Source: Candidatus Magasanikiibacteriota bacterium (GTDB lineage: Bacteria > Patescibacteriota > Patescibacteriia > Magasanikbacterales > UBA10146). From it: a DNA stretch of 43,303 bases. The stretch lies in NCBI GenBank assembly GCA_016212585.1, contig JACRFU010000062.1, forward strand, positions 1 through 43,303. The letters run 5' to 3'. The notes under the pieces were generated by a model, which saw nothing but the letters and a program-made list of their open reading frames with translations, did no database searches and was not told the origin of the DNA. Made by a program: the position numbers and the translations under genes. Numbering within the stretch: position 1 is the first letter of the stretch; each line of letters starts with the position of its first letter. Shown here piece after piece: positions 15,084 to 22,966 of the stretch.

Positions 15084-16274
15084 TTATTTAAGAATCTTTG
15101 TTACCACTCCTGCCCCAACGGTTCTGCCACCCTCACGAATTGCAAAACGTGTTTTTTCTTCAAGTGCGATGGGAGTAATCAATTTAACAGTCATCTTAAC
15201 CGTATCTCCTGGCATTACCATTTCTGTTCCCGGCGCAAGAGCAATATCACCAGTTACATCGGTAGTGCGGACATAAAATTGCGGCTTATATCCGGTAAAG
15301 AATGGCTTATGGCGTCCGCCTTCTTCTTTGGTCAAAGTATATACTTCTGATTCAAACTCGGTGTGAGGAGTAACCGTACCGGGTTTGGCTACCACCATTC
15401 CGCGCAAAGCGTCTTCTTTTTTAATACCGCGCAAAAGCACGCCGGCGTTGTCTCCTGCCATACCTTCATCCAAAGACTTGTTGAACATTTCAATACCGGT
15501 AATAACGGTTTTTTGCGTGTCTTTGATACCAATCATTTCCGCTTCATCATTGACATGGATAATTCCGCGTTCAATACGACCGGTTACTACGGTTCCACGA
15601 CCTTCAATGGAGAAAACATCTTCAATAGGCATAAGGAACGGTTTGTCTGTCTCGCGTTGTGGTTGTGGAATATAGGTATCCAACTTTTCCAAAAGATCCA
15701 AAATTGGTTTGGATGCGGCTTCATCACTTGGATTTTCCAACGCCTTGAGAGCACTTCCGCGGATTATAGGAGTGGTGTCGCCAGGGAATTCGTATTTCTT
15801 CAAAAGGTCGCGCACTTCTTCTTCCACCAAATCAATCAGTTCAGGATCAGATACTTGGTCAACTTTGTTCAAGAAAACGATGATGTAAGGTACTCCAACT
15901 TGTCGCGCAAGCAAGATGTGCTCGCGTGTTTGAGGCATAGGGCCATCTGCGGCGGAAACCACCAAAATAGAGCCGTCCATCTGCGCGGCGCCGGTAATCA
16001 TGTTTTTGACATAATCGGCGTGACCCGGACAATCTACATGCGCGTAATGGCGCGTCTTTGATTCGTACTCAACATGGGTCGCGTTAATGGTAATACCACG
16101 AGCCTTTTCTTCCGGGGCTTTGTCAATTTGGTCAACACCTTTATCTTGGGAGATAAAACCATGGTGTTTTAACACCTGCAAAATAGCGGCAGTAAGAGTA
16201 GTTTTTCCATGATCAACATGACCAATGGTTCCTACATTTAGATGCGGTTTACTGCGGTCAAATTTCTCTGCCAT
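15084..16274 (-). CDS. tuf: Elongation factor Tu
   Basis: 396 aa with [18 protein letters not shown] and NKVD GTPase motifs. Confidence 0.98.
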
Positions 16275-16350
16275 AGATTTATGATATATTAAATATTAAA
16301 AAATTTTACTAATTTAAGCGATTTTTTATACCTAAAAAGGTACGAGCATT

Positions 16351-16379
16351 ACTATACCACAACAAAAAAAATAATGCAA
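16351..16379 (-). promoter_or_regulatory. Candidate sigma70-type promoter for tuf
   Basis: On the minus strand: TTGCAT, 17 nt, TATAGT preceded by TGG (extended -10-like). It lies about 75 nt upstream of the tuf ATG. Confidence 0.45.
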
Positions 16380-16402
16380 GAGCGGATGCTGTGGACAGCT
16401 CT

Positions 16403-16753
16403 TTAGCTCTCAACCGGCTCCAAATAATAGTGGTCTTCAACCTGCTTTTCTTCTAAAACTTGTGGTTTTTCAGCAAATTCTTCCCACCAATCCGGCGCGG
16501 CGGTTTCCGTCAATTCTTGAACAAGCACTCCGCCAAGCGGCAACGCGCTTTGGGCTACTTCTTCCTTTATAGGAGTAACAAAAGATGTTTTTTCCTGCAT
16601 TTTTTCTGTTAATCCCTGTTTACCAAACACTAGATGCTCATAATCTTTAATGGACATGACCACATAATTATTCTCTGTGGAGCGATCAATCACCACCAAG
16701 CGGTCGCCTGTTTTTTTGATGAGTTCTAAAATTTGGTCAAACGATTCGGTCAT
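16403..16753 (-). CDS. Phd/YefM-like antitoxin-fold protein with an acidic tail (no adjacent cognate toxin)
   Basis: The N-terminal DRLVVIDRSTENNYVVMSIKDYEHLV resembles the Phd/YefM beta-strand core. The C-terminal half is Glu/Pro-rich. Confidence 0.4.
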   Translation of the reverse strand: MTESFDQILELIKKTGDRLVVIDRSTENNYVVMSIKDYEHLVFGKQGLTEKMQEKTSFVTPIKEEVAQSALPLGGVLVQELTETAAPDWWEEFAEKPQVLEEKQVEDHYYLEPVES

Positions 16754-16787
16754 AGTGTATCAATTGTATAAAAAATATCTTCCCTTG

Positions 16788-17189
16788 TCAACCCGCGCTC
16801 ATATGATCCAACACCATCTGCATTAAGACGTAATACTTCTCTATACTCTCTAAAAGCTGTCTTGCGAATGCTTCATCATAGGTGTGTGTTGTTGTATTAT
16901 GATCATCCACCATTTGCAAAAGCGTTTCTGTTTCAACATCTGACACCAGTTCATGAACACGCAACGCTCTAAAACATTCTTTGGGGGAAGGCGCATTCGT
17001 CCCAAAACGTTCAAATAAAAATACTTTACATGCTTTCCAGCACAACTCAAACGAATATTCAAACCGCTGTATGGCGGCATCGCGCACAAATGTCTCCACA
17101 TTCTCCGGATTATATGCATCTAACGCTTCTTTGGGCGTCATAAGCGCTTTTTTGAATGCGCCCAATTTATAGATTAACGTTTGATCCAT
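16788..17189 (-). CDS. HEPN-domain protein, HI0074-family nucleotidyltransferase substrate-binding subunit (HepT-like toxin)
   Basis: 133 aa with DAAIQRFEYSFELCWKACKVFL, typical of NTase_sub_bind/HEPN. Overlaps the upstream MNT gene by 16 nt. Confidence 0.75.
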   Translation of the reverse strand: MDQTLIYKLGAFKKALMTPKEALDAYNPENVETFVRDAAIQRFEYSFELCWKACKVFLFERFGTNAPSPKECFRALRVHELVSDVETETLLQMVDDHNTTTHTYDEAFARQLLESIEKYYVLMQMVLDHMSAG

Positions 17190-17470
17190 ACAATCTTGTT
17201 ATTTTCTAAAACATTTTTTTGAAAAGCCGCCGCGGCCGTATTGAAATTGACCACATCTATTTTAAAAGGAAGTGTTGATGTTTCAAATACTTCCTTTAAT
17301 TTTCTTATATCTCCTTCAGTTATGTTTCCTTTCACTCCCACATCAACATCGGAAAATTTGTCTTGCCGCACCGCGGAACCAAATAAAAAAATCTGTATTT
17401 TTTTTCCTTTGGCAAAGGTGGAAAGGTCTTTTTTAATCCGTTCAAAATACTTTTTTTTATTCTGAATCAT
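17174..17470 (-). CDS. Minimal nucleotidyltransferase (MNT / MntA-like antitoxin)
   Basis: Start placed at MIQNKKKYF. Contains the polbeta-NTase motif FLFGSAVRQDKFSDVDVGV. The upstream part of ORF 17174-17566 is repeat read-through. Confidence 0.75.
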   Translation of the reverse strand: MIQNKKKYFERIKKDLSTFAKGKKIQIFLFGSAVRQDKFSDVDVGVKGNITEGDIRKLKEVFETSTLPFKIDVVNFNTAAAAFQKNVLENNKIVWIKR

Positions 17471-17483
17471 ATGCACATATAAT

Positions 17484-17537
17484 GGGTTTGTCGCCGAATG
17501 CCATTTTGACTGCAAAAGCGCATTCAGCGACAGACCC
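17484..17537 (-). mobile_element. Family A mini-derivative (54 bp, both termini, interior deleted), copy 6
   Basis: GGGTTTGTCGCCGAATGCCATTTTGACTGCAAAAGCGCATTCAGCGACAGACCC, flanked by a perfect direct repeat ATAAT (17479-17483 and 17538-17542). Confidence 0.85.
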
Positions 17538-17593
17538 ATAATAACAAAAAAATGCTTGTAATGCAAGAAAAAAATAATGCGTGAAAAACTTGA

Positions 17594-19402
17594 TTATCTC
17601 TCTCTGCTCGCGCGCAAAGCGTTCAATATGGCAACCACATCTATAAGCTCTTGCACCACGGCGCCGGTAAGGGGAGGCAATCCGCCCAGAGCGGCCACTA
17701 TCATGCCTATGCCGCTCAAACCCATGCCGATAAAAATACTCGTGAACGCAATCCGCACGGTGCGCCTGGCTATACCAAGCGCGTCGCACACCAAAGAAAA
17801 CTCACCACCCAAAAACACAATATCCGCCGCGTCCGACGCGGCCGTGCGTTCTTCATTTGAAAACACCAATCCCACATCCGCCGTGGCAAGCGCCGGCGCG
17901 TCGTTGATGCCGTCTCCCACCATTGCAATGCGAAAGCCTTTTTGTTTCAAATCCGCGACACCTCTCTGTTTGTCTTCCGGCGACATTTCCGCGGTTACCT
18001 GCACATGCGTGCCCAGCGCCTCCCGCACTCGCGCCGCGGCCGCCTCTTTGTCTCCGGTAAAAATACGCAATAAAAATTTCTGGCTCTGCAAGCGTTCAAT
18101 AATCGCGCGCGACTCATATTTTATTTCATCTTCAATAAAAAATGTCGCCGCAAGCACTTCATTTTCATAAAGCCCTACCGCCATGCTGTTATGATCTTGT
18201 ACTTTGGTCACAAAAAAATGCGAACAGGCAACAACCCCGCCAATTCCCTTTCCAATCTGTTCTTCCACTTTTTGCGCCTGCATCATGGGCGCATGCACGC
18301 TATGCGCGTATGAAACAACAGACTTTGCAAGAGGATGCAAAGAGTTTCGTTCCAGTGCGGACGCAATGCCAACCAACTCTTCCACACTGCGCGTGACGGA
18401 ATGAGACTCCACACTCGTAACGCGCGGCACGCCGAGTGTGATAGTGCCAGTCTTATCAAACACCAACGCGTTCACACGCGCGAGCGTCTCCAAGCTCGCA
18501 AGGCGCTTTACAATAATTCTACGTTTTGCCGCGGCATTAACCCCGCCCAAAAGCGCGATTGGTGTTGCCAAAATCAACGGGCACGGCGTGGCAATAACCA
18601 GCACCGCCAAAACACGACCCCACTCGCCGGAAATAAAATACGCACCCGCCGCGATGACGAGCGTAACCGCGGCAAACCAACCGCTTGCTTTGTCCGCAAG
18701 GCGTATGAGCGGCGCTTTTTCTCCCTGCGCTTTTTCCACCAACTCAATAATCTTATGATAGGTGGAGTCTTTTTCTTCCGCGGTCACACGCACCACAACC
18801 GCGTCTCCTTTGTTCACCGTACCACTGCGCACTACATCACCTTTGATTTTATCTATAATATACGGCTCGCCGGTGATTGATGATTCATCAGTAAGACCAT
18901 TTTCAGATTCCAAAATACCATCCAATGGTATAACTTCTCCCTTGCGGATACAAATCGCATCTCCCACGCGCACTTGCGCGATAGATCGTTTCTCTCCCGG
19001 ATTACCCTCAACCGCCATTAAAATATCCCGCGGAATACGCCCTATGAGCGATGTCAAAGATTTTCGTGCCAACTGCACGCCGTATGCTTCAAGCGCGCGA
19101 CCGGTGGACGCCATAAACGCAATCACAAGCGCCACCACATATTGACCCATCACAAGCGCCACCAGCAACGCCAAAAGAGCGATGTAGTCTATAGCATACC
19201 TACGCGCGCGCAATTCTTGCCATGTTTCTTTTATAAGCGGAGCACTGCCAAAAGCCACACCCACATACGCAACACCAACCGCTATCTCCGCAAATGCGAT
19301 AACGCGCAAAAGCGCATACAAAACAAAACACACCCCTACAAACAAAGGTCCTTTCCACCAGGTAATTAACGAACGGATAATCATTTTTTGCTTTCTAACC
19401 AA
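17594..19402 (-). CDS. Heavy-metal-translocating P1B-type ATPase without an N-terminal metal-binding domain
   Basis: 602 aa with DKTGTIT, MVGDGINDAPALA and the transmembrane motif ATPCPL. An alternative ATG at 19384 gives an ATGA overlap with the AbiEii stop. Confidence 0.88.
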   Translation of the reverse strand: MVRKQKMIIRSLITWWKGPLFVGVCFVLYALLRVIAFAEIAVGVAYVGVAFGSAPLIKETWQELRARRYAIDYIALLALLVALVMGQYVVALVIAFMASTGRALEAYGVQLARKSLTSLIGRIPRDILMAVEGNPGEKRSIAQVRVGDAICIRKGEVIPLDGILESENGLTDESSITGEPYIIDKIKGDVVRSGTVNKGDAVVVRVTAEEKDSTYHKIIELVEKAQGEKAPLIRLADKASGWFAAVTLVIAAGAYFISGEWGRVLAVLVIATPCPLILATPIALLGGVNAAAKRRIIVKRLASLETLARVNALVFDKTGTITLGVPRVTSVESHSVTRSVEELVGIASALERNSLHPLAKSVVSYAHSVHAPMMQAQKVEEQIGKGIGGVVACSHFFVTKVQDHNSMAVGLYENEVLAATFFIEDEIKYESRAIIERLQSQKFLLRIFTGDKEAAAARVREALGTHVQVTAEMSPEDKQRGVADLKQKGFRIAMVGDGINDAPALATADVGLVFSNEERTAASDAADIVFLGGEFSLVCDALGIARRTVRIAFTSIFIGMGLSGIGMIVAALGGLPPLTGAVVQELIDVVAILNALRASRER

Positions 19403-20076
19403 GCTTGTAATAAAAATATTGTTTCGGTTCGCAACTTTACTCGAGCCCAGTCTTTCTGCGATTCATTGAGCATCTCCCCAAGACCGTCAAGGATATGTCG
19501 GTTATCCATTTTCTCTAAAAGTTCTACGCATTTAACCAAAACATCTTTAAATGGCATCTTGGCACGATCTTCAACCAATTTTATATTTATCGGCCAATTA
19601 TTTTTAGCAAAAAAATACACATCATATACATCACGACTCGTTTTGCCGATTCGTTCATACATGGCCATTAACTTATTGGCAAACATATCTTCTTTGACCA
19701 TCACGGGCATTGAAATTCCCAATAATATTTTTAATTCATAGCGAGAACCAAAATTTCGACGATTGACTTCTATCTTGATATTCTGAGATTTTAAATCGTA
19801 TGAAATAACCGTGACCAAATTAAATCTTTTAATCCTTGCGTCAACAATTTTGCCATAACTCACGGAAATCTTTTGAATTTTCTCAAATACTTGCTTCTCC
19901 TTGCTTTCATCCAAAAGATCAAGGTCAATATCAACAGAATTGCGGGTTAAGTCATAAAACATAAGAGCGGCAGTCCCGCCTTTAAAACCTAGATAAGGAG
20001 AGAGTGATGTATCAGAAAAAATATCTTTCAAAATTTGTAATAAGATATTTTTATGTTTCGGATAGTCTAACGTCAT
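19381..20076 (-). CDS. AbiEii / DUF1814 nucleotidyltransferase toxin (type IV TA)
   Basis: 231 aa with GFKGGTAALMFYDLTRNSVDIDLDL. Lies immediately downstream of an AbiEi-like gene. Confidence 0.8.
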   Translation of the reverse strand: MTLDYPKHKNILLQILKDIFSDTSLSPYLGFKGGTAALMFYDLTRNSVDIDLDLLDESKEKQVFEKIQKISVSYGKIVDARIKRFNLVTVISYDLKSQNIKIEVNRRNFGSRYELKILLGISMPVMVKEDMFANKLMAMYERIGKTSRDVYDVYFFAKNNWPINIKLVEDRAKMPFKDVLVKCVELLEKMDNRHILDGLGEMLNESQKDWARVKLRTETIFLLQAWLESKK

Positions 20077-20087
20077 ACCCTTTTATC

Positions 20088-20648
20088 TCATAATTTATTG
20101 TCTTTGTAATGTTTTAAATATTCCGCAACCTTTTTTTCCATTCTCTTGTTACGATATATCGGCAAAATTTCAAAAACTTTTTCCCAATCCAAAACATCCA
20201 AGTGATCAAAATGGTAATCTTTACTAATATATATCCTATCCAAAAATGCCCGTTCTTTTGTGGCCGTAGATATGTCATTTGTATGTTCAATTCCCATTGT
20301 GTTGCTTAAAACGTAATCTTTCATCCTGATGAAAGATATCTTTTGTCCATCAGCTTCAATCTCACGAGTAACATATGAAGCAACAAAAATGTTTCCGTAA
20401 TATTGAAAATTTACTCCGGCACGTGTTAATACCGTTTCAAAACTGATATATGAAGGGGTATAAATTCTAGTAGCCAACTCAAAACGGTTATAGTTTTTAT
20501 CTTTAGCGTAAATACCCTGATAAATTCTAATCAATTTCCCTTTTTTTGCATAATTGCTTAATCTTACCCGAACATTGGTTGTGCCTTGTTCACCCCACAA
20601 CAAAGCAATGTCTCTAGTGGAAAAGACAGTTTTAGGAGATCGTAACAA
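20088..20648 (-). CDS. AbiEi-type antitoxin / transcriptional regulator
   Basis: 186 aa with FSTRDIALLWG...KKGKLIRIYQGIYA...TPSYISFETVLTRAGV (AbiEi_4-like). Confidence 0.75.
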   Translation of the reverse strand: MLRSPKTVFSTRDIALLWGEQGTTNVRVRLSNYAKKGKLIRIYQGIYAKDKNYNRFELATRIYTPSYISFETVLTRAGVNFQYYGNIFVASYVTREIEADGQKISFIRMKDYVLSNTMGIEHTNDISTATKERAFLDRIYISKDYHFDHLDVLDWEKVFEILPIYRNKRMEKKVAEYLKHYKDNKL

Positions 20649-20764
20649 AATCTCAATATATTCACCTTTTAAGAGTTTTTTATTCGTATGTTTACTGGTA
20701 GTAAGCTTAAAACTTACTTCCAGTACAATTATACACCAAAACTAAATGGAAATCAAGGTCAACA

Positions 20765-20862
20765 CAGACTGTCTGAGAACTGCCATTTTAGAGTTTTTTT
20801 GAAATTTTTTTGGCTAATTTTAACACCGCAATTTTCTAAAAATTGAGTTTCTGGACAGTCTG
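20765..20862 (-). repeat. Divergent short relative of family A (98 bp)
   Basis: CAGACTGTCTGAGAACTGCCATTTTAGAG...TTTCTGGACAGTCTG. Termini are a 9-bp inverted repeat (CAGACTGTC / GACAGTCTG). GACTGTC..GCCATTTT and the TTTGAAATTTTTTTGGCT core are shared with family A. Confidence 0.55.
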
Positions 20863-20887
20863 ATAAACCTCTAAATATTTGAAATGT

Positions 20888-22966
20888 CTATTTTTTCTTC
20901 CCTTCAATAATCAACTGCTCAACATTTCTTGGCACATCCGAGTAGTGCGAAAATTCCATAGAGTAACTCGCGCGGCCTTGCGTCATAGAACGCAGTTCCG
21001 TTGCGTAGCCAAACATTTCAGAGAGCGGCACATCAGCATCTATCACCTTAATCCCCGCGCGATCGCGCATTTCTTTAATCTGTGCGCGTTTGGAGTTGAG
21101 ATTGCCAATAACGTCTCCCATAAATTGTTCCGGCGTTACCACTTCCACTTTCATAATCGGTTCCAAAATTACCGGCTTTGCTTTTTTAACCGCTTCTTGC
21201 AAAGCAAATGATCCTGCCAATTTAAATGCCTGCTCGGAAGAGTCAACTTCATGATATGAACCGTCAAACACCGTGGCCTTCACGTCAATCATGGGGTAGC
21301 CTGCCACCACACCGCGATCCAATGCTTCTTTGACGCCTTTTTGAATTGCGGGAATGTATTCTTTTGGAATCACACCGCCTTTTACTTCATCTTCAAACTC
21401 GTATCCTTTGCCTACTTCGTTTGGTTCAATCTTCAGCCAGCAATGGCCATATTGTCCACGACCGCCGGATTGGCGAATGTATTTACCTTCTGCTTTCGCG
21501 CTGGCGCGAATCGTTTCTTTGTACGCCACTTGCGGAGTACCAATGTTTGCTTCAACTTTAAACTCCCGTTTCATGCGATCCACAATAATTTCCAAATGCA
21601 GTTCCCCCATACCGGAAATGAGCGTCTGCATGGTTTCCGGATCGGACTTAATACGGAATGTGGGGTCTTCTTCACCCAATTTTTGCAAAGCAACACCCAT
21701 TTTTTCCTGATCCGCTTTAGTTTTGGGTTCAATCGCCACGGAAATAACCGGTTCCGGAAATGTGATAGATTCAAGAATTACCGGCCGGTCCGTTGAACAA
21801 ATCGTGTGTCCGGTAAAGGTGCTTTTTAATCCCACAATCGCGGCAATTTCGCCCGCGTACACTTCTTGCACTTCTTCACGGCTGTTGGCGTGCATGCGCA
21901 CAATGCGCCCCACCCGTTCTTTTTCACCGGTGATGGTATTGATCACATAAGAACCGGACTGCAAAATACCGGAATACACCCGAAAATACGCGAGCTTCCC
22001 CACAAACGGGTCGCTTGCGATTTTGAATACCAATCCCGCAAATGGTTCGTTATCCACGGGATGAACTTCAATCATTTTGGTCTCGTCATCCGAATCTTTG
22101 CCAATGAGCGCTGGCACATCCAAAGGCGATGGAAGAAAATCAACCACCGCGTCAAGCATAAATTGCACACCTTTGTTCTTGAGAGCACTTCCGCACAAAA
22201 TGGGAACAATTTCAAACTTCACCACCGCGGCACGCAAAACTTTTTTCAAATCCGCAACAAGAATTTCTTCTCCTACAAGATACTTGGTCATGAGAGCTTC
22301 ATCATTTTCAACAATTTTCTCAATGAGTTTGGTACGATATTCTTCCACTTTTGCTTTCATGTCTTCCGGCGGGTCAGATTCTTCAATTTCTCGTCCCAAA
22401 TCATCTTTATAGATATACGCGCGGCGGGTCAGCAAATCAATAATTCCTTTGAAATGTTCCTCGTCGCCGATAGGCAACTGATACGGAAGCGCGTTGGGTG
22501 TAAGGCGTTCGTTGATTGAACGAACATCTTTGAAGAAATCCGCGCCCATTCGGTCAAGCTTGTTCACAAAACAAATACGCGGCACTTTGTATTTGTCCGC
22601 TTGGCGCCACACGGTTTCGGATTGCGGCTCTACACCCGCTACACCGTCAAACACCACCACACCGCCGTCCAGCACACGCAACGATCGTTCCACTTCCGCG
22701 GTAAAATCCACGTGACCGGGGGTGTCAATAATGTTAATGCGAGTGTTCTTCCAAAAACAGGTGGTTGCGGCGGCGGTAATGGTAATGCCACGCTCCTGCT
22801 CTTGTTCCATCCAGTCCATAGTGGCGGCGCCTTCATGCACTTCACCAATTTTGTGTTTCTTGCCGGTATAAAACAAAATGCGTTCACTCACTGTAGTTTT
22901 ACCGGCATCAATGTGCGCGATAATACCAATGTTGCGAGTTCGTTCTTGAGAATATTCACGAGGCAT
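20888..22966 (-). CDS. fusA: Elongation factor G
   Basis: 692 aa with [17 protein letters not shown] and NKLD motifs. Position follows rpsG. Confidence 0.98.

Follow-up and report, generated by a model that had tools for sequence, protein, structure and literature searches.

Variable hotspots that are flanked by core genes and hold defence or toxin-antitoxin (TA) cassettes are known, and the 'minimal mobile elements' of Neisseria are exchanged through the homology of their flanks. The locus analysed here is the interval between fusA and tuf, the genes coding for the elongation factors EF-G and EF-Tu, in a stretch of 43,303 nucleotides from a very small, uncultured Candidatus Magasanikiibacteriota bacterium of groundwater (contig JACRFU010000062.1 of GenBank assembly GCA_016212585.1); the window means this whole stretch. 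Both genes are on the minus strand and are separated by 4.6 kb that contain an AbiEi/AbiEii pair, a P1B-type metal ATPase gene, an MNT/HEPN pair and an open reading frame (ORF) of 116 amino acids (aa), here called orfX. The comparative analyses indicated, with a probability of about 0.8, that the junction between fusA and orfX-tuf is a lineage-wide variable slot that was filled stepwise by independent modules, each with its own promoter. Like the core-gene-flanked hotspots, the locus shows conserved flanks, unrelated cassettes in relatives, cassette-borne promoters, TA and abortive infection (Abi) cargo and no integrase. Unlike them, it is flanked by both elongation-factor genes, and in some families it holds housekeeping genes (trmD, 16S rRNA). 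The locus is an ordinary instance of this known kind, with an unusually clear layering.

The individual modules also have described counterparts. AbiE acts by a type IV TA/Abi mechanism and is bicistronic, abiEi-abiEii, with a DUF1814 toxin that carries a GG...DxD motif (Dy et al. 2014, PMC3985639), and AbiEi regulates its own operon through inverted repeats in the promoter region (PMC7319586). The window likewise has a bicistronic operon, a full-length AbiEi and an inverted repeat in the promoter region. It differs in that a P1B ATPase is fused onto the operon, the ATPase start overlapping the toxin stop, and in that its proteins form a short, AT-rich subfamily of the Candidate Phyla Radiation (CPR). 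HepT/MntA (HI0073/HI0074) is a type VII TA system in which MNT lies upstream of HEPN and overlaps it, as in the window, and its families are defined by the motifs RX4HXY (HepT) and GSX10DXD (MntA) (PMC7641770). The HEPN protein of the window keeps HXY, including the Tyr that is AMPylated in HepT, and its MNT protein has GS...DxD; the pair departs from HepT/MntA by an Arg to His change in HEPN, by the GS-DxD spacing and by a frameshifted HEPN gene in a relative. The P1B ATPases CopA and ZntA (3rfu, 4umv) share DKTGT, TGE and GDGxNDxP with the ATPase of the window, in which TPCP replaces CPC in the metal-binding transmembrane helix and the N-terminal metal-binding (HMA) domain is missing. orfX resembles the Phd/YefM type II antitoxins in its N-terminal core and in its disordered C-terminal half; unlike them it is followed by no toxin gene, is fixed upstream of tuf and has a motif of its own, (F/Y)YxEPxE.

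Variability of the fusA-tuf junction in the order

fusA and tuf were found on the same contig and strand in 29 genomes of the order, and on different contigs in 7 more. The gap between them measured 90-690 bp in 14 of the 29 genomes and 1.2-10.6 kb, with unrelated cargo, in the other 15. fusA itself is 66-77% identical between the window and relatives of the order. The first-pass annotation, made from the letters of the window, had proposed that accessory genes are embedded in a str operon that is otherwise contiguous, and the synteny comparison supports one half of this proposal: the AbiE-ATPase content of the window is accessory, while a contiguous operon is not the norm, the junction being interrupted in about half of the order genomes (15/29). 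Splitting of fusA from tuf is normal in the clade and is not restricted to selfish elements.

Most insertions in the order lie between fusA and orfX. The cargo consists of a 605-aa beta-helix protein on the opposite strand in genome G026, deacetylase, kinase-like protein and CoA-ligase-like genes in G009, a 318-aa protein without Pfam match together with a probable 398-aa glycosyltransferase on the opposite strand in G024, an ABC transporter and a surface protein of 2064 aa in G012, and, in G004, a NYN protein, ArsR, DsrE and what is probably a dihydroorotate dehydrogenase. No other family of the order has the island of the window. AbiE and the ATPase are patchy in the class as well, and the composition is deviant, so that the description of the fusA-to-orfX region as accessory DNA stands; this DNA is delimited at about positions 16792-20887.

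Within one family, the 16S rRNA gene (RF00177, about 1450 bits) and trmD lie inside the gap of the str operon, with fusA on one side and orfX-tuf on the other, in G020 and G013 and probably in G005 (L035 2404-3901, minus strand; L054 1304-2798, plus strand). In G025 (L034 1479-5576) the insertion is situated between orfX and tuf and comprises five ORFs (153-237 aa) that are paralogs of one another; the two that were scanned, the largest, gave no Pfam match.

Comparison with a congener and with environmental contigs

The only genome of the same genus that was compared is Ca. Magasanikbacteria GW2011_GWC2_45_8 (LCLH01000027.1, G001), hereafter the congener. It carries, in this order, the 3' end of fusA, a remnant of an IS3 insertion sequence (IS) with rve_3, AbiEi, AbiEii, the ATPase, a MazE-like gene, ParE, orfX and tuf. 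ParE matched PF05016 above the gathering score, and the MazE-like protein gave only a weak hit. In pairwise DNA alignments, the homology of the window with the congener breaks off directly behind the ATPase stop and returns at the -35 box of orfX. Upstream, homology ends about 25 nt past the fusA stop and resumes at the abiE promoter. A terminator-like hairpin, AAAACCTCCTCC-ATATAC-GGAGGAGGTTTT, stands after fusA in the congener, with the IS remnant behind it. The congener carries neither of the two MITE-like elements (miniature inverted-repeat transposable elements, MITEs) of the window.

Two independent Logan environmental contigs gave further arrangements. Contig L061 contains MNT, an intact HEPN gene, an ORF of 192 aa, orfX and tuf, and contig L062 contains the ATPase, MNT, a HEPN gene that frameshifts have broken in two, orfX and tuf. 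The L062-type population is that of run SRR22387758. Among close relatives, at least four states of the slot that separates the ATPase from orfX were therefore seen. No AbiEii is present upstream of the ATPase in L062, where homology to the window and to the congener starts at the ATPase start codon; judged by this junction, the abiE cassette would have been either inserted at, or deleted up to, the ATG of the ATPase. In the same contig (143-2032) the ATPase ORF reads into the remnant of a MazE-like antitoxin (...YRTIFSAEKDNKGQSISAKKLLKAIK), the gene of which is intact in the congener. This remnant on the end of the ATPase suggests that an MNT/HEPN cassette replaced a MazE/ParE cassette.

Ratios of nonsynonymous to synonymous substitution (dN/dS) and dS were calculated between the window and the congener by a simple Nei-Gojobori estimate (Table 1). 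AbiE and the ATPase are under purifying selection, and they either predate the split of the two species or have been exchanged since. The lower dS of the abiE genes fits a younger or more recently recombined layer.

Base composition

The genome to which the window belongs is a metagenome-assembled genome (MAG) of 0.93 Mb in 75 contigs with 45.1% GC. When the genes were ranked among 769 greedy ORFs of this genome (mean gene GC 45.6%, standard deviation 4.5), AbiEi (33.0%) fell at the 1st percentile, AbiEii (34.2%) at the 2.5th, MNT (32.7%) at the 0.9th and the ATPase (51.7%) at the 95th, while HEPN (41.5%) and orfX (42.2%) were unremarkable. The AbiE genes, which had looked AT-richer than their flanks by eye, are so by calculation. 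The sliding GC profile of the region showed three blocks, and the spread between modules reaches 19 points; the region is a compositional mosaic and not one unit.

Probable stepwise assembly and alternative explanations

Each of AbiE, the ATPase and the small TA pairs is an accessory module in its own right, and they happen to be stacked at this place. The first layer would be a stand-alone P1B metal-export ATPase of the TPCP type. As a second layer, an AbiEi/AbiEii cassette with its own promoter and palindrome would have been inserted exactly at the ATPase start codon; this insertion would have cost the ATPase its upstream region, and the gene would now most likely be transcribed from the AbiEi-controlled promoter. 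The third layer would be a small exchangeable TA slot that extends from the ATPase stop to the -35 box of orfX. Its alleles would be a miniature MITE with MNT/HEPN in the window, MazE-like/ParE in the congener, MNT with a frameshifted HEPN in L062, and MNT/HEPN with an extra gene in L061. The modules would work, or would once have worked, as ordinary selfish or defensive TA units: by analogy with the described systems, the toxicity of the AbiEii nucleotidyltransferase would be held in check by AbiEi, and MntA would AMPylate the Tyr of HepT. Exchange would most likely proceed by homologous recombination through the conserved flanks (fusA on one side, orfX-tuf on the other), with MITE and IS insertions adding change. 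A sigma-70-like promoter was located upstream of every module by promoter scan and by reading, so that co-transcription with fusA is not required. No functional tie of the modules to the expression of the translation factors is demonstrated.

Several points weigh against this reading. The order of the layers is taken from a single contig, L062, which has 142 nt upstream of the ATPase, and a loss of AbiE would explain that contig equally well. Short genes and a simple estimator underlie the dS values, and AT-rich genes may behave differently. The transcription units, including the probable reliance of the ATPase on the abiE promoter, are putative. The window contains no integrase, recombinase or clear target-site duplication, and the insertion mechanism that we infer is a presumed one. 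The MNT protein has the spacing GS-x8-DxD and not the GSX10DXD described for MntA. Finally, the His that replaces Arg in HEPN might retain some RNase activity, or might be an error of the MAG consensus.

The first-pass annotation had pictured a single, recently and horizontally acquired island with three addiction modules which, lying in a contiguous str operon, would be hard to lose and would be co-transcribed with fusA. The strong AT shift of AbiE and MNT, the common orientation of all genes with fusA and tuf, the lack of a predicted intrinsic terminator after fusA in the window and the absence of the island outside the genus are all in its favour. However, the GC content of the modules differs too widely for one unit, different subsets of modules are combined in the congener, L061 and L062, and AbiE and the ATPase are shared with the congener under purifying selection (dS 0.2-0.4, dN/dS about 0.1), which argues that their acquisition was not recent. 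The third of the modules is the core gene orfX, and the operon was not contiguous to begin with, since about half of the order has an interrupted junction. In the congener a hairpin stands right after fusA, and each module has a promoter of its own. A single event was rejected on these comparative data, which largely refute it, and we regard it as quite unlikely. A functional arrangement has also to be considered, in which the Phd-like protein and the TA/Abi toxins, whose known counterparts have tRNA or mRNA as targets, would regulate the translation-factor genes or be co-regulated with them. Doc, the partner toxin of Phd, targets EF-Tu; across the class, orfX with its Phd/YefM-like fold has a fixed place upstream of tuf, and the genes of the island run in the same direction as fusA and tuf. 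On the contrary, the cargo of relatives has nothing to do with translation (glycosyltransferases, giant surface proteins, ABC transporters, ArsR/DsrE, beta-helix) and is sometimes on the opposite strand, AbiE copies elsewhere in the genome and in the class never adjoin tuf, the TA slot swaps between non-homologous TA families, and the HEPN toxin is decaying. This arrangement is therefore considered unlikely.

A chimeric contig, in which the fusA and tuf contigs of the MAG were joined through MITE repeats, would be another conceivable cause of the split. The MAG, with its 75 contigs, is indeed rich in MITEs (225 terminus hits), and MITE-like elements lie at two internal junctions of the island. 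The fusA-AbiE and AbiEii-ATPase junctions are also present in the independent assembly of the congener, which has neither MITE-like element, and the ATPase-MNT and HEPN-orfX-tuf junctions recur on the independent Logan contigs. As the junctions are repeated in this way, the chimera was rejected, and an artefact of assembly is highly improbable.

Read as a slot that was filled stepwise, the locus illustrates, cleanly and on a small scale, the way in which a flexible gene pool is kept up in reduced CPR genomes, with defence/TA cassettes and a metal pump at one breakpoint that has an extremely conserved gene on either side. Close relatives show the swapping of cassettes, the decay of toxins (Arg to His; frameshifts) and the capture of a gene by an operon (ATPase onto abiE). 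The fusA-tuf slot together with orfX could serve as a synteny marker in the comparative genomics of Patescibacteria.

orfX, a gene linked to tuf

The short fusA-tuf gaps in relatives of the order consist of an orfX homolog (L040-L044, 96-139 aa). Alignment of 13 homologs revealed a conserved N-terminus, KTGDRxVV...YVVMSxxDYExL, a variable and acidic middle and the C-terminal (F/Y)YxEPxE. A profile search of 121 genomes sampled across the class found orfX in 68, once per genome. In 66 of these the gene is on the strand of tuf, and its end lies 72-646 bp upstream of tuf. A sample taken across the phylum gave 16 further genomes with orfX from outside the class; the distance to tuf, which lies downstream, is at most 750 bp in 12 of them and 1.1-2.6 kb in 3 more. 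No cognate toxin gene lies immediately downstream of orfX, the next gene being tuf in 66/68 class genomes. In G002 (L060, G002:C1:487850-488050) about 90 bp separate fusA and tuf, and orfX appears to be missing or to have moved.

The match of orfX to PF02604 (E 0.02, 15.1 bits) is under the gathering score of 29.8. An AlphaFold2 (AF2) model has an alpha-beta-beta-alpha N-terminal core with pLDDT values of 80-88, and the remainder is disordered. The top Foldseek hits were all YefM/Phd/RelJ antitoxins, at non-significant values (E 0.4-1), and a profile search against PDB sequences brought up nothing but spurious matches to coiled coils and sortases, YefM having E=1. The label "Phd-like" suits the fold of orfX, and "orphan antitoxin of the island" is wrong: the gene is a single-copy, class-wide partner of tuf, which leaves two of the three TA-type modules that had been counted in the island. 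This corrects an annotation trap, as a "Phd-like antitoxin" next to tuf is a conserved gene specific to the clade and is not to be counted as a TA orphan.

The promoter of orfX, a strong one, forms the downstream edge of the variable TA slot, and the homology of the congener resumes exactly at its -35 box. It is possible, though we advance it only tentatively, that orfX (~100-240 aa) is an antitoxin-type factor which has been domesticated and now either regulates tuf or binds to EF-Tu, and that its promoter is the constant edge of a phylum-wide fusA-tuf capture slot in which TA cassettes are swapped precisely between the gene ahead of them and the -35 box. orfX is the most interesting by-product of the analysis and a target for functional study.

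Features of the window

The AbiEi/AbiEii, P1B ATPase and MNT/HEPN genes that the first-pass annotation had placed between fusA and tuf were all confirmed by family searches, and the ORF listing has all relevant ORFs of the window on the minus strand, which upholds the co-orientation of the island genes with fusA and tuf. The promoter it had read ahead of tuf is present, and the congener has the same sequence. Coordinates are given in Table 1.

Table 1. Positions of the features and homologs described, with the matches that identify them and the substitution estimates between window and congener
Feature	Coordinates	Strand	Evidence	dN/dS	dS
fusA (EF-G), upstream conserved flank	20888-22966	-	TIGR00484, 1133 bits	0.02 (3' end)	0.49 (3' end)
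98-bp inverted-repeat (MITE-like) element, ends CAGACTGTC...GACAGTCTG	20765-20862		not family A		
abiE promoter-like site TTGATT-17-TATAAT	20728-20756	-	10/12 consensus matches		
Operator-like palindrome TACTGGAAGTAAG-7-CTTACTACCAGTA	20693-20725	-	directly after abiE -10 box		
AbiEi antitoxin/transcriptional regulator, 186 aa	20088-20648	-	PADLOC PDLC02255, E 1.4e-55, full length	0.07	0.25
AbiEii DUF1814 nucleotidyltransferase toxin, 231 aa	19381-20076	-	PF08843 E 2.4e-16; PDLC02324 E 7e-75	0.13	0.20
P1B-type metal ATPase, 596 aa	17594-19384	-	TIGR01525, 438 bits (cut-off 346)	0.11	0.40
Promoter-like site TTGCAT-17-TATTAT, upstream of MNT/HEPN	17538-17566	-	read directly; unlisted by promoter scan, -35 only 3/6		
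Miniature MITE of family A (both termini, back to back)	17484-17537		nhmmer E 4e-5 and 8e-5, both ends of profile		
MNT (MntA-like) nucleotidyltransferase antitoxin, 98 aa from ATG 17470	17174-17470	-	PF18765 E 7e-10; NF047752 E 1e-7		
HEPN (HI0074/HepT-like) toxin homolog, 133 aa	16788-17189	-	PF08780 E 1e-24; TIGR01987, 67 bits; NF047751		
orfX promoter TTGACA-17-TACAAT	16763-16791	-	11/12 matches; congener 12/12		
orfX, 116 aa, Phd/YefM-like N-terminal fold, C-terminal (F/Y)YxEPxE	16403-16753	-	no significant family	0.22	0.36
tuf promoter-like site TTGCAT-17-TATAGT, TG ahead of -10 box	16351-16379	-	read from sequence		
tuf (EF-Tu), downstream conserved flank	15084-16274	-	TIGR00485, 707 bits	0.03 (5' part)	0.68 (5' part)
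rpsJ				0.02	1.0
orfX homolog, L040	2192-2611				
orfX homolog, L041	2183-2575				
orfX homolog, L042	1392-1778	-			
orfX homolog, L037	11302-11757				

The scan for intrinsic terminators gave no convincing one from fusA to tuf in the window, and the same scan, which also overlooked the obvious hairpin after fusA in the congener, is not decisive. No Rfam family was matched in the whole window, and the island holds no riboswitch or known RNA. No mobility gene (integrase, recombinase or transposase), tRNA or border attachment repeat was found in the window, and the only elements of this nature are MITE-like.

The AbiE cassette

AbiEii matched PF08843 with 60.8 bits (gathering score 22.5), and its translation shows KGGTA...NSVDIDLD, which contains the GG...DxD motif. 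The weaker matches of AbiEi, NF047376 (E 9e-9) and PF13338 (weak), are below the cut-offs. abiEi is directly upstream of abiEii on the same strand with a gap of 11 nt. The promoter-like site is kept in the congener as TTGACT-17-TATAAT. The palindrome that follows it has arms of 13 nt with 1 mismatch, and its core ACTGrAAG...CTTyCAGT persists in the paralogous pair on contig C62 and in the congener, where the two arms have changed correspondingly. It fits the autoregulation by AbiEi and is a putative operator, by analogy with the inverted repeats of the described system.

Three AbiEi/AbiEii pairs are present in the genome, in the window and on contigs C62 and C64, and the two paralogous pairs are arranged like that of the window. 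The C62 pair (C62:1427-5110, L063), 80/72% identical to AbiEi/AbiEii of the window, lies directly upstream of a type I restriction-modification (RM) methylase-specificity fusion of 736 aa (E 1.7e-242). The C64 pair (C64:2027-3290, L064) is 44/51% identical and adjoins murA. The C62 pair also abuts a Cys-rich ORF of 63 aa, and it has the promoter/operator region in common with the window copy.

The AbiEii subfamily was detected in 23 of 120 other class genomes, in scattered families and with 1-3 copies each, and identities of up to 73% were found in another family. Judged by coordinates, none of the AbiEii copies in these 23 genomes adjoins tuf. A tblastn search with AbiEii against plasmid and phage collections gave no match in either.

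The MNT/HEPN pair

Family matches bear out the pair as such. The HEPN start overlaps the MNT stop by 16 nt. A longer MNT ORF of 130 aa from a TTG crosses a MITE, and because it runs through this element the ATG at 17470 is the likely start; an MNT of the identical length, 98 aa, is called on contig L062. The MNT motif reads GS-AVRQDKFS-DVD, with 8 residues between GS and DxD, and this spacing recurs in L061 and L062.

The HEPN motif of the window is HNTTTHTY, in which His takes the place of the invariant, catalytic Arg of RX4HXY, and the His and Tyr are retained. Among 30 homologs the His at the Arg column (residue 97) is found in the window only (1/30), and the homologs in the PDB have Arg (RNxTxHTY). 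In L062 the two frameshifted pieces of the gene lie at 2376-2784. Because of the Arg to His change, and of the frameshifts in L062, the toxin looks inactivated or attenuated at this locus; in the window it is probably the replacement of the Arg that inactivates it.

The P1B-type ATPase

The ATG of the ATPase (19384-19382) overlaps the TGA of AbiEii (19383-19381) as ATGA, as had been suspected, and the same overlap is present in the congener. Neither in the window nor in the congener does the gene possess its own upstream region, and its expression therefore probably depends on the abiE promoter or on starts within abiEii. The motifs FDKTGTIT, SITGEP and VGDGINDAP are readable, and residues 81-586 align with the P1B core of CopA (3rfu), with TPC opposite CPC. 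The N-terminal HMA domain is absent, and the family search detected no C-terminal hemerythrin domain. TPCP may be a P1B-5 (Ni/Fe) signature, and we assign no subgroup.

Orthologs with 51-53% identity and the motif TPCPLILATP were found in 2 of 120 class genomes (G051 and G118), where a flavoprotein gene and a DEAD-box helicase gene flank them and AbiE is lacking. A search of genome contigs for relatives of the ATPase returned only the congener and one match of 30% in Bacteroidia. The genome also has a second P1B ATPase, a conventional one of 788 aa, on contig C56. Where other P1B subgroups carry the metal ligands of the last helix, the ATPase of the window has QELID, and so do the G051 and G118 orthologs.

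Repeat elements

Family A is a MITE of 162 bp with about 50 full copies and 225 terminus hits in the genome. The mini copy that had been noted next to MNT proved to be a true miniature of this family in the nhmmer search. The repeat between fusA and the abiE promoter, which had been taken for a divergent family A copy, gave no nhmmer hit at E<=10 against the 50-copy family A profile; this assignment was rejected, and the element is a separate inverted-repeat element of two copies. Its hairpin energy is -28.5 kcal/mol, and no clear target duplication was seen at it. In the window it occupies the place of the terminator-like hairpin that follows fusA in the congener. The one other copy (C69:7716-7813), 94% identical, has an ABC-transporter ATPase gene on one side and a permease gene on the other.

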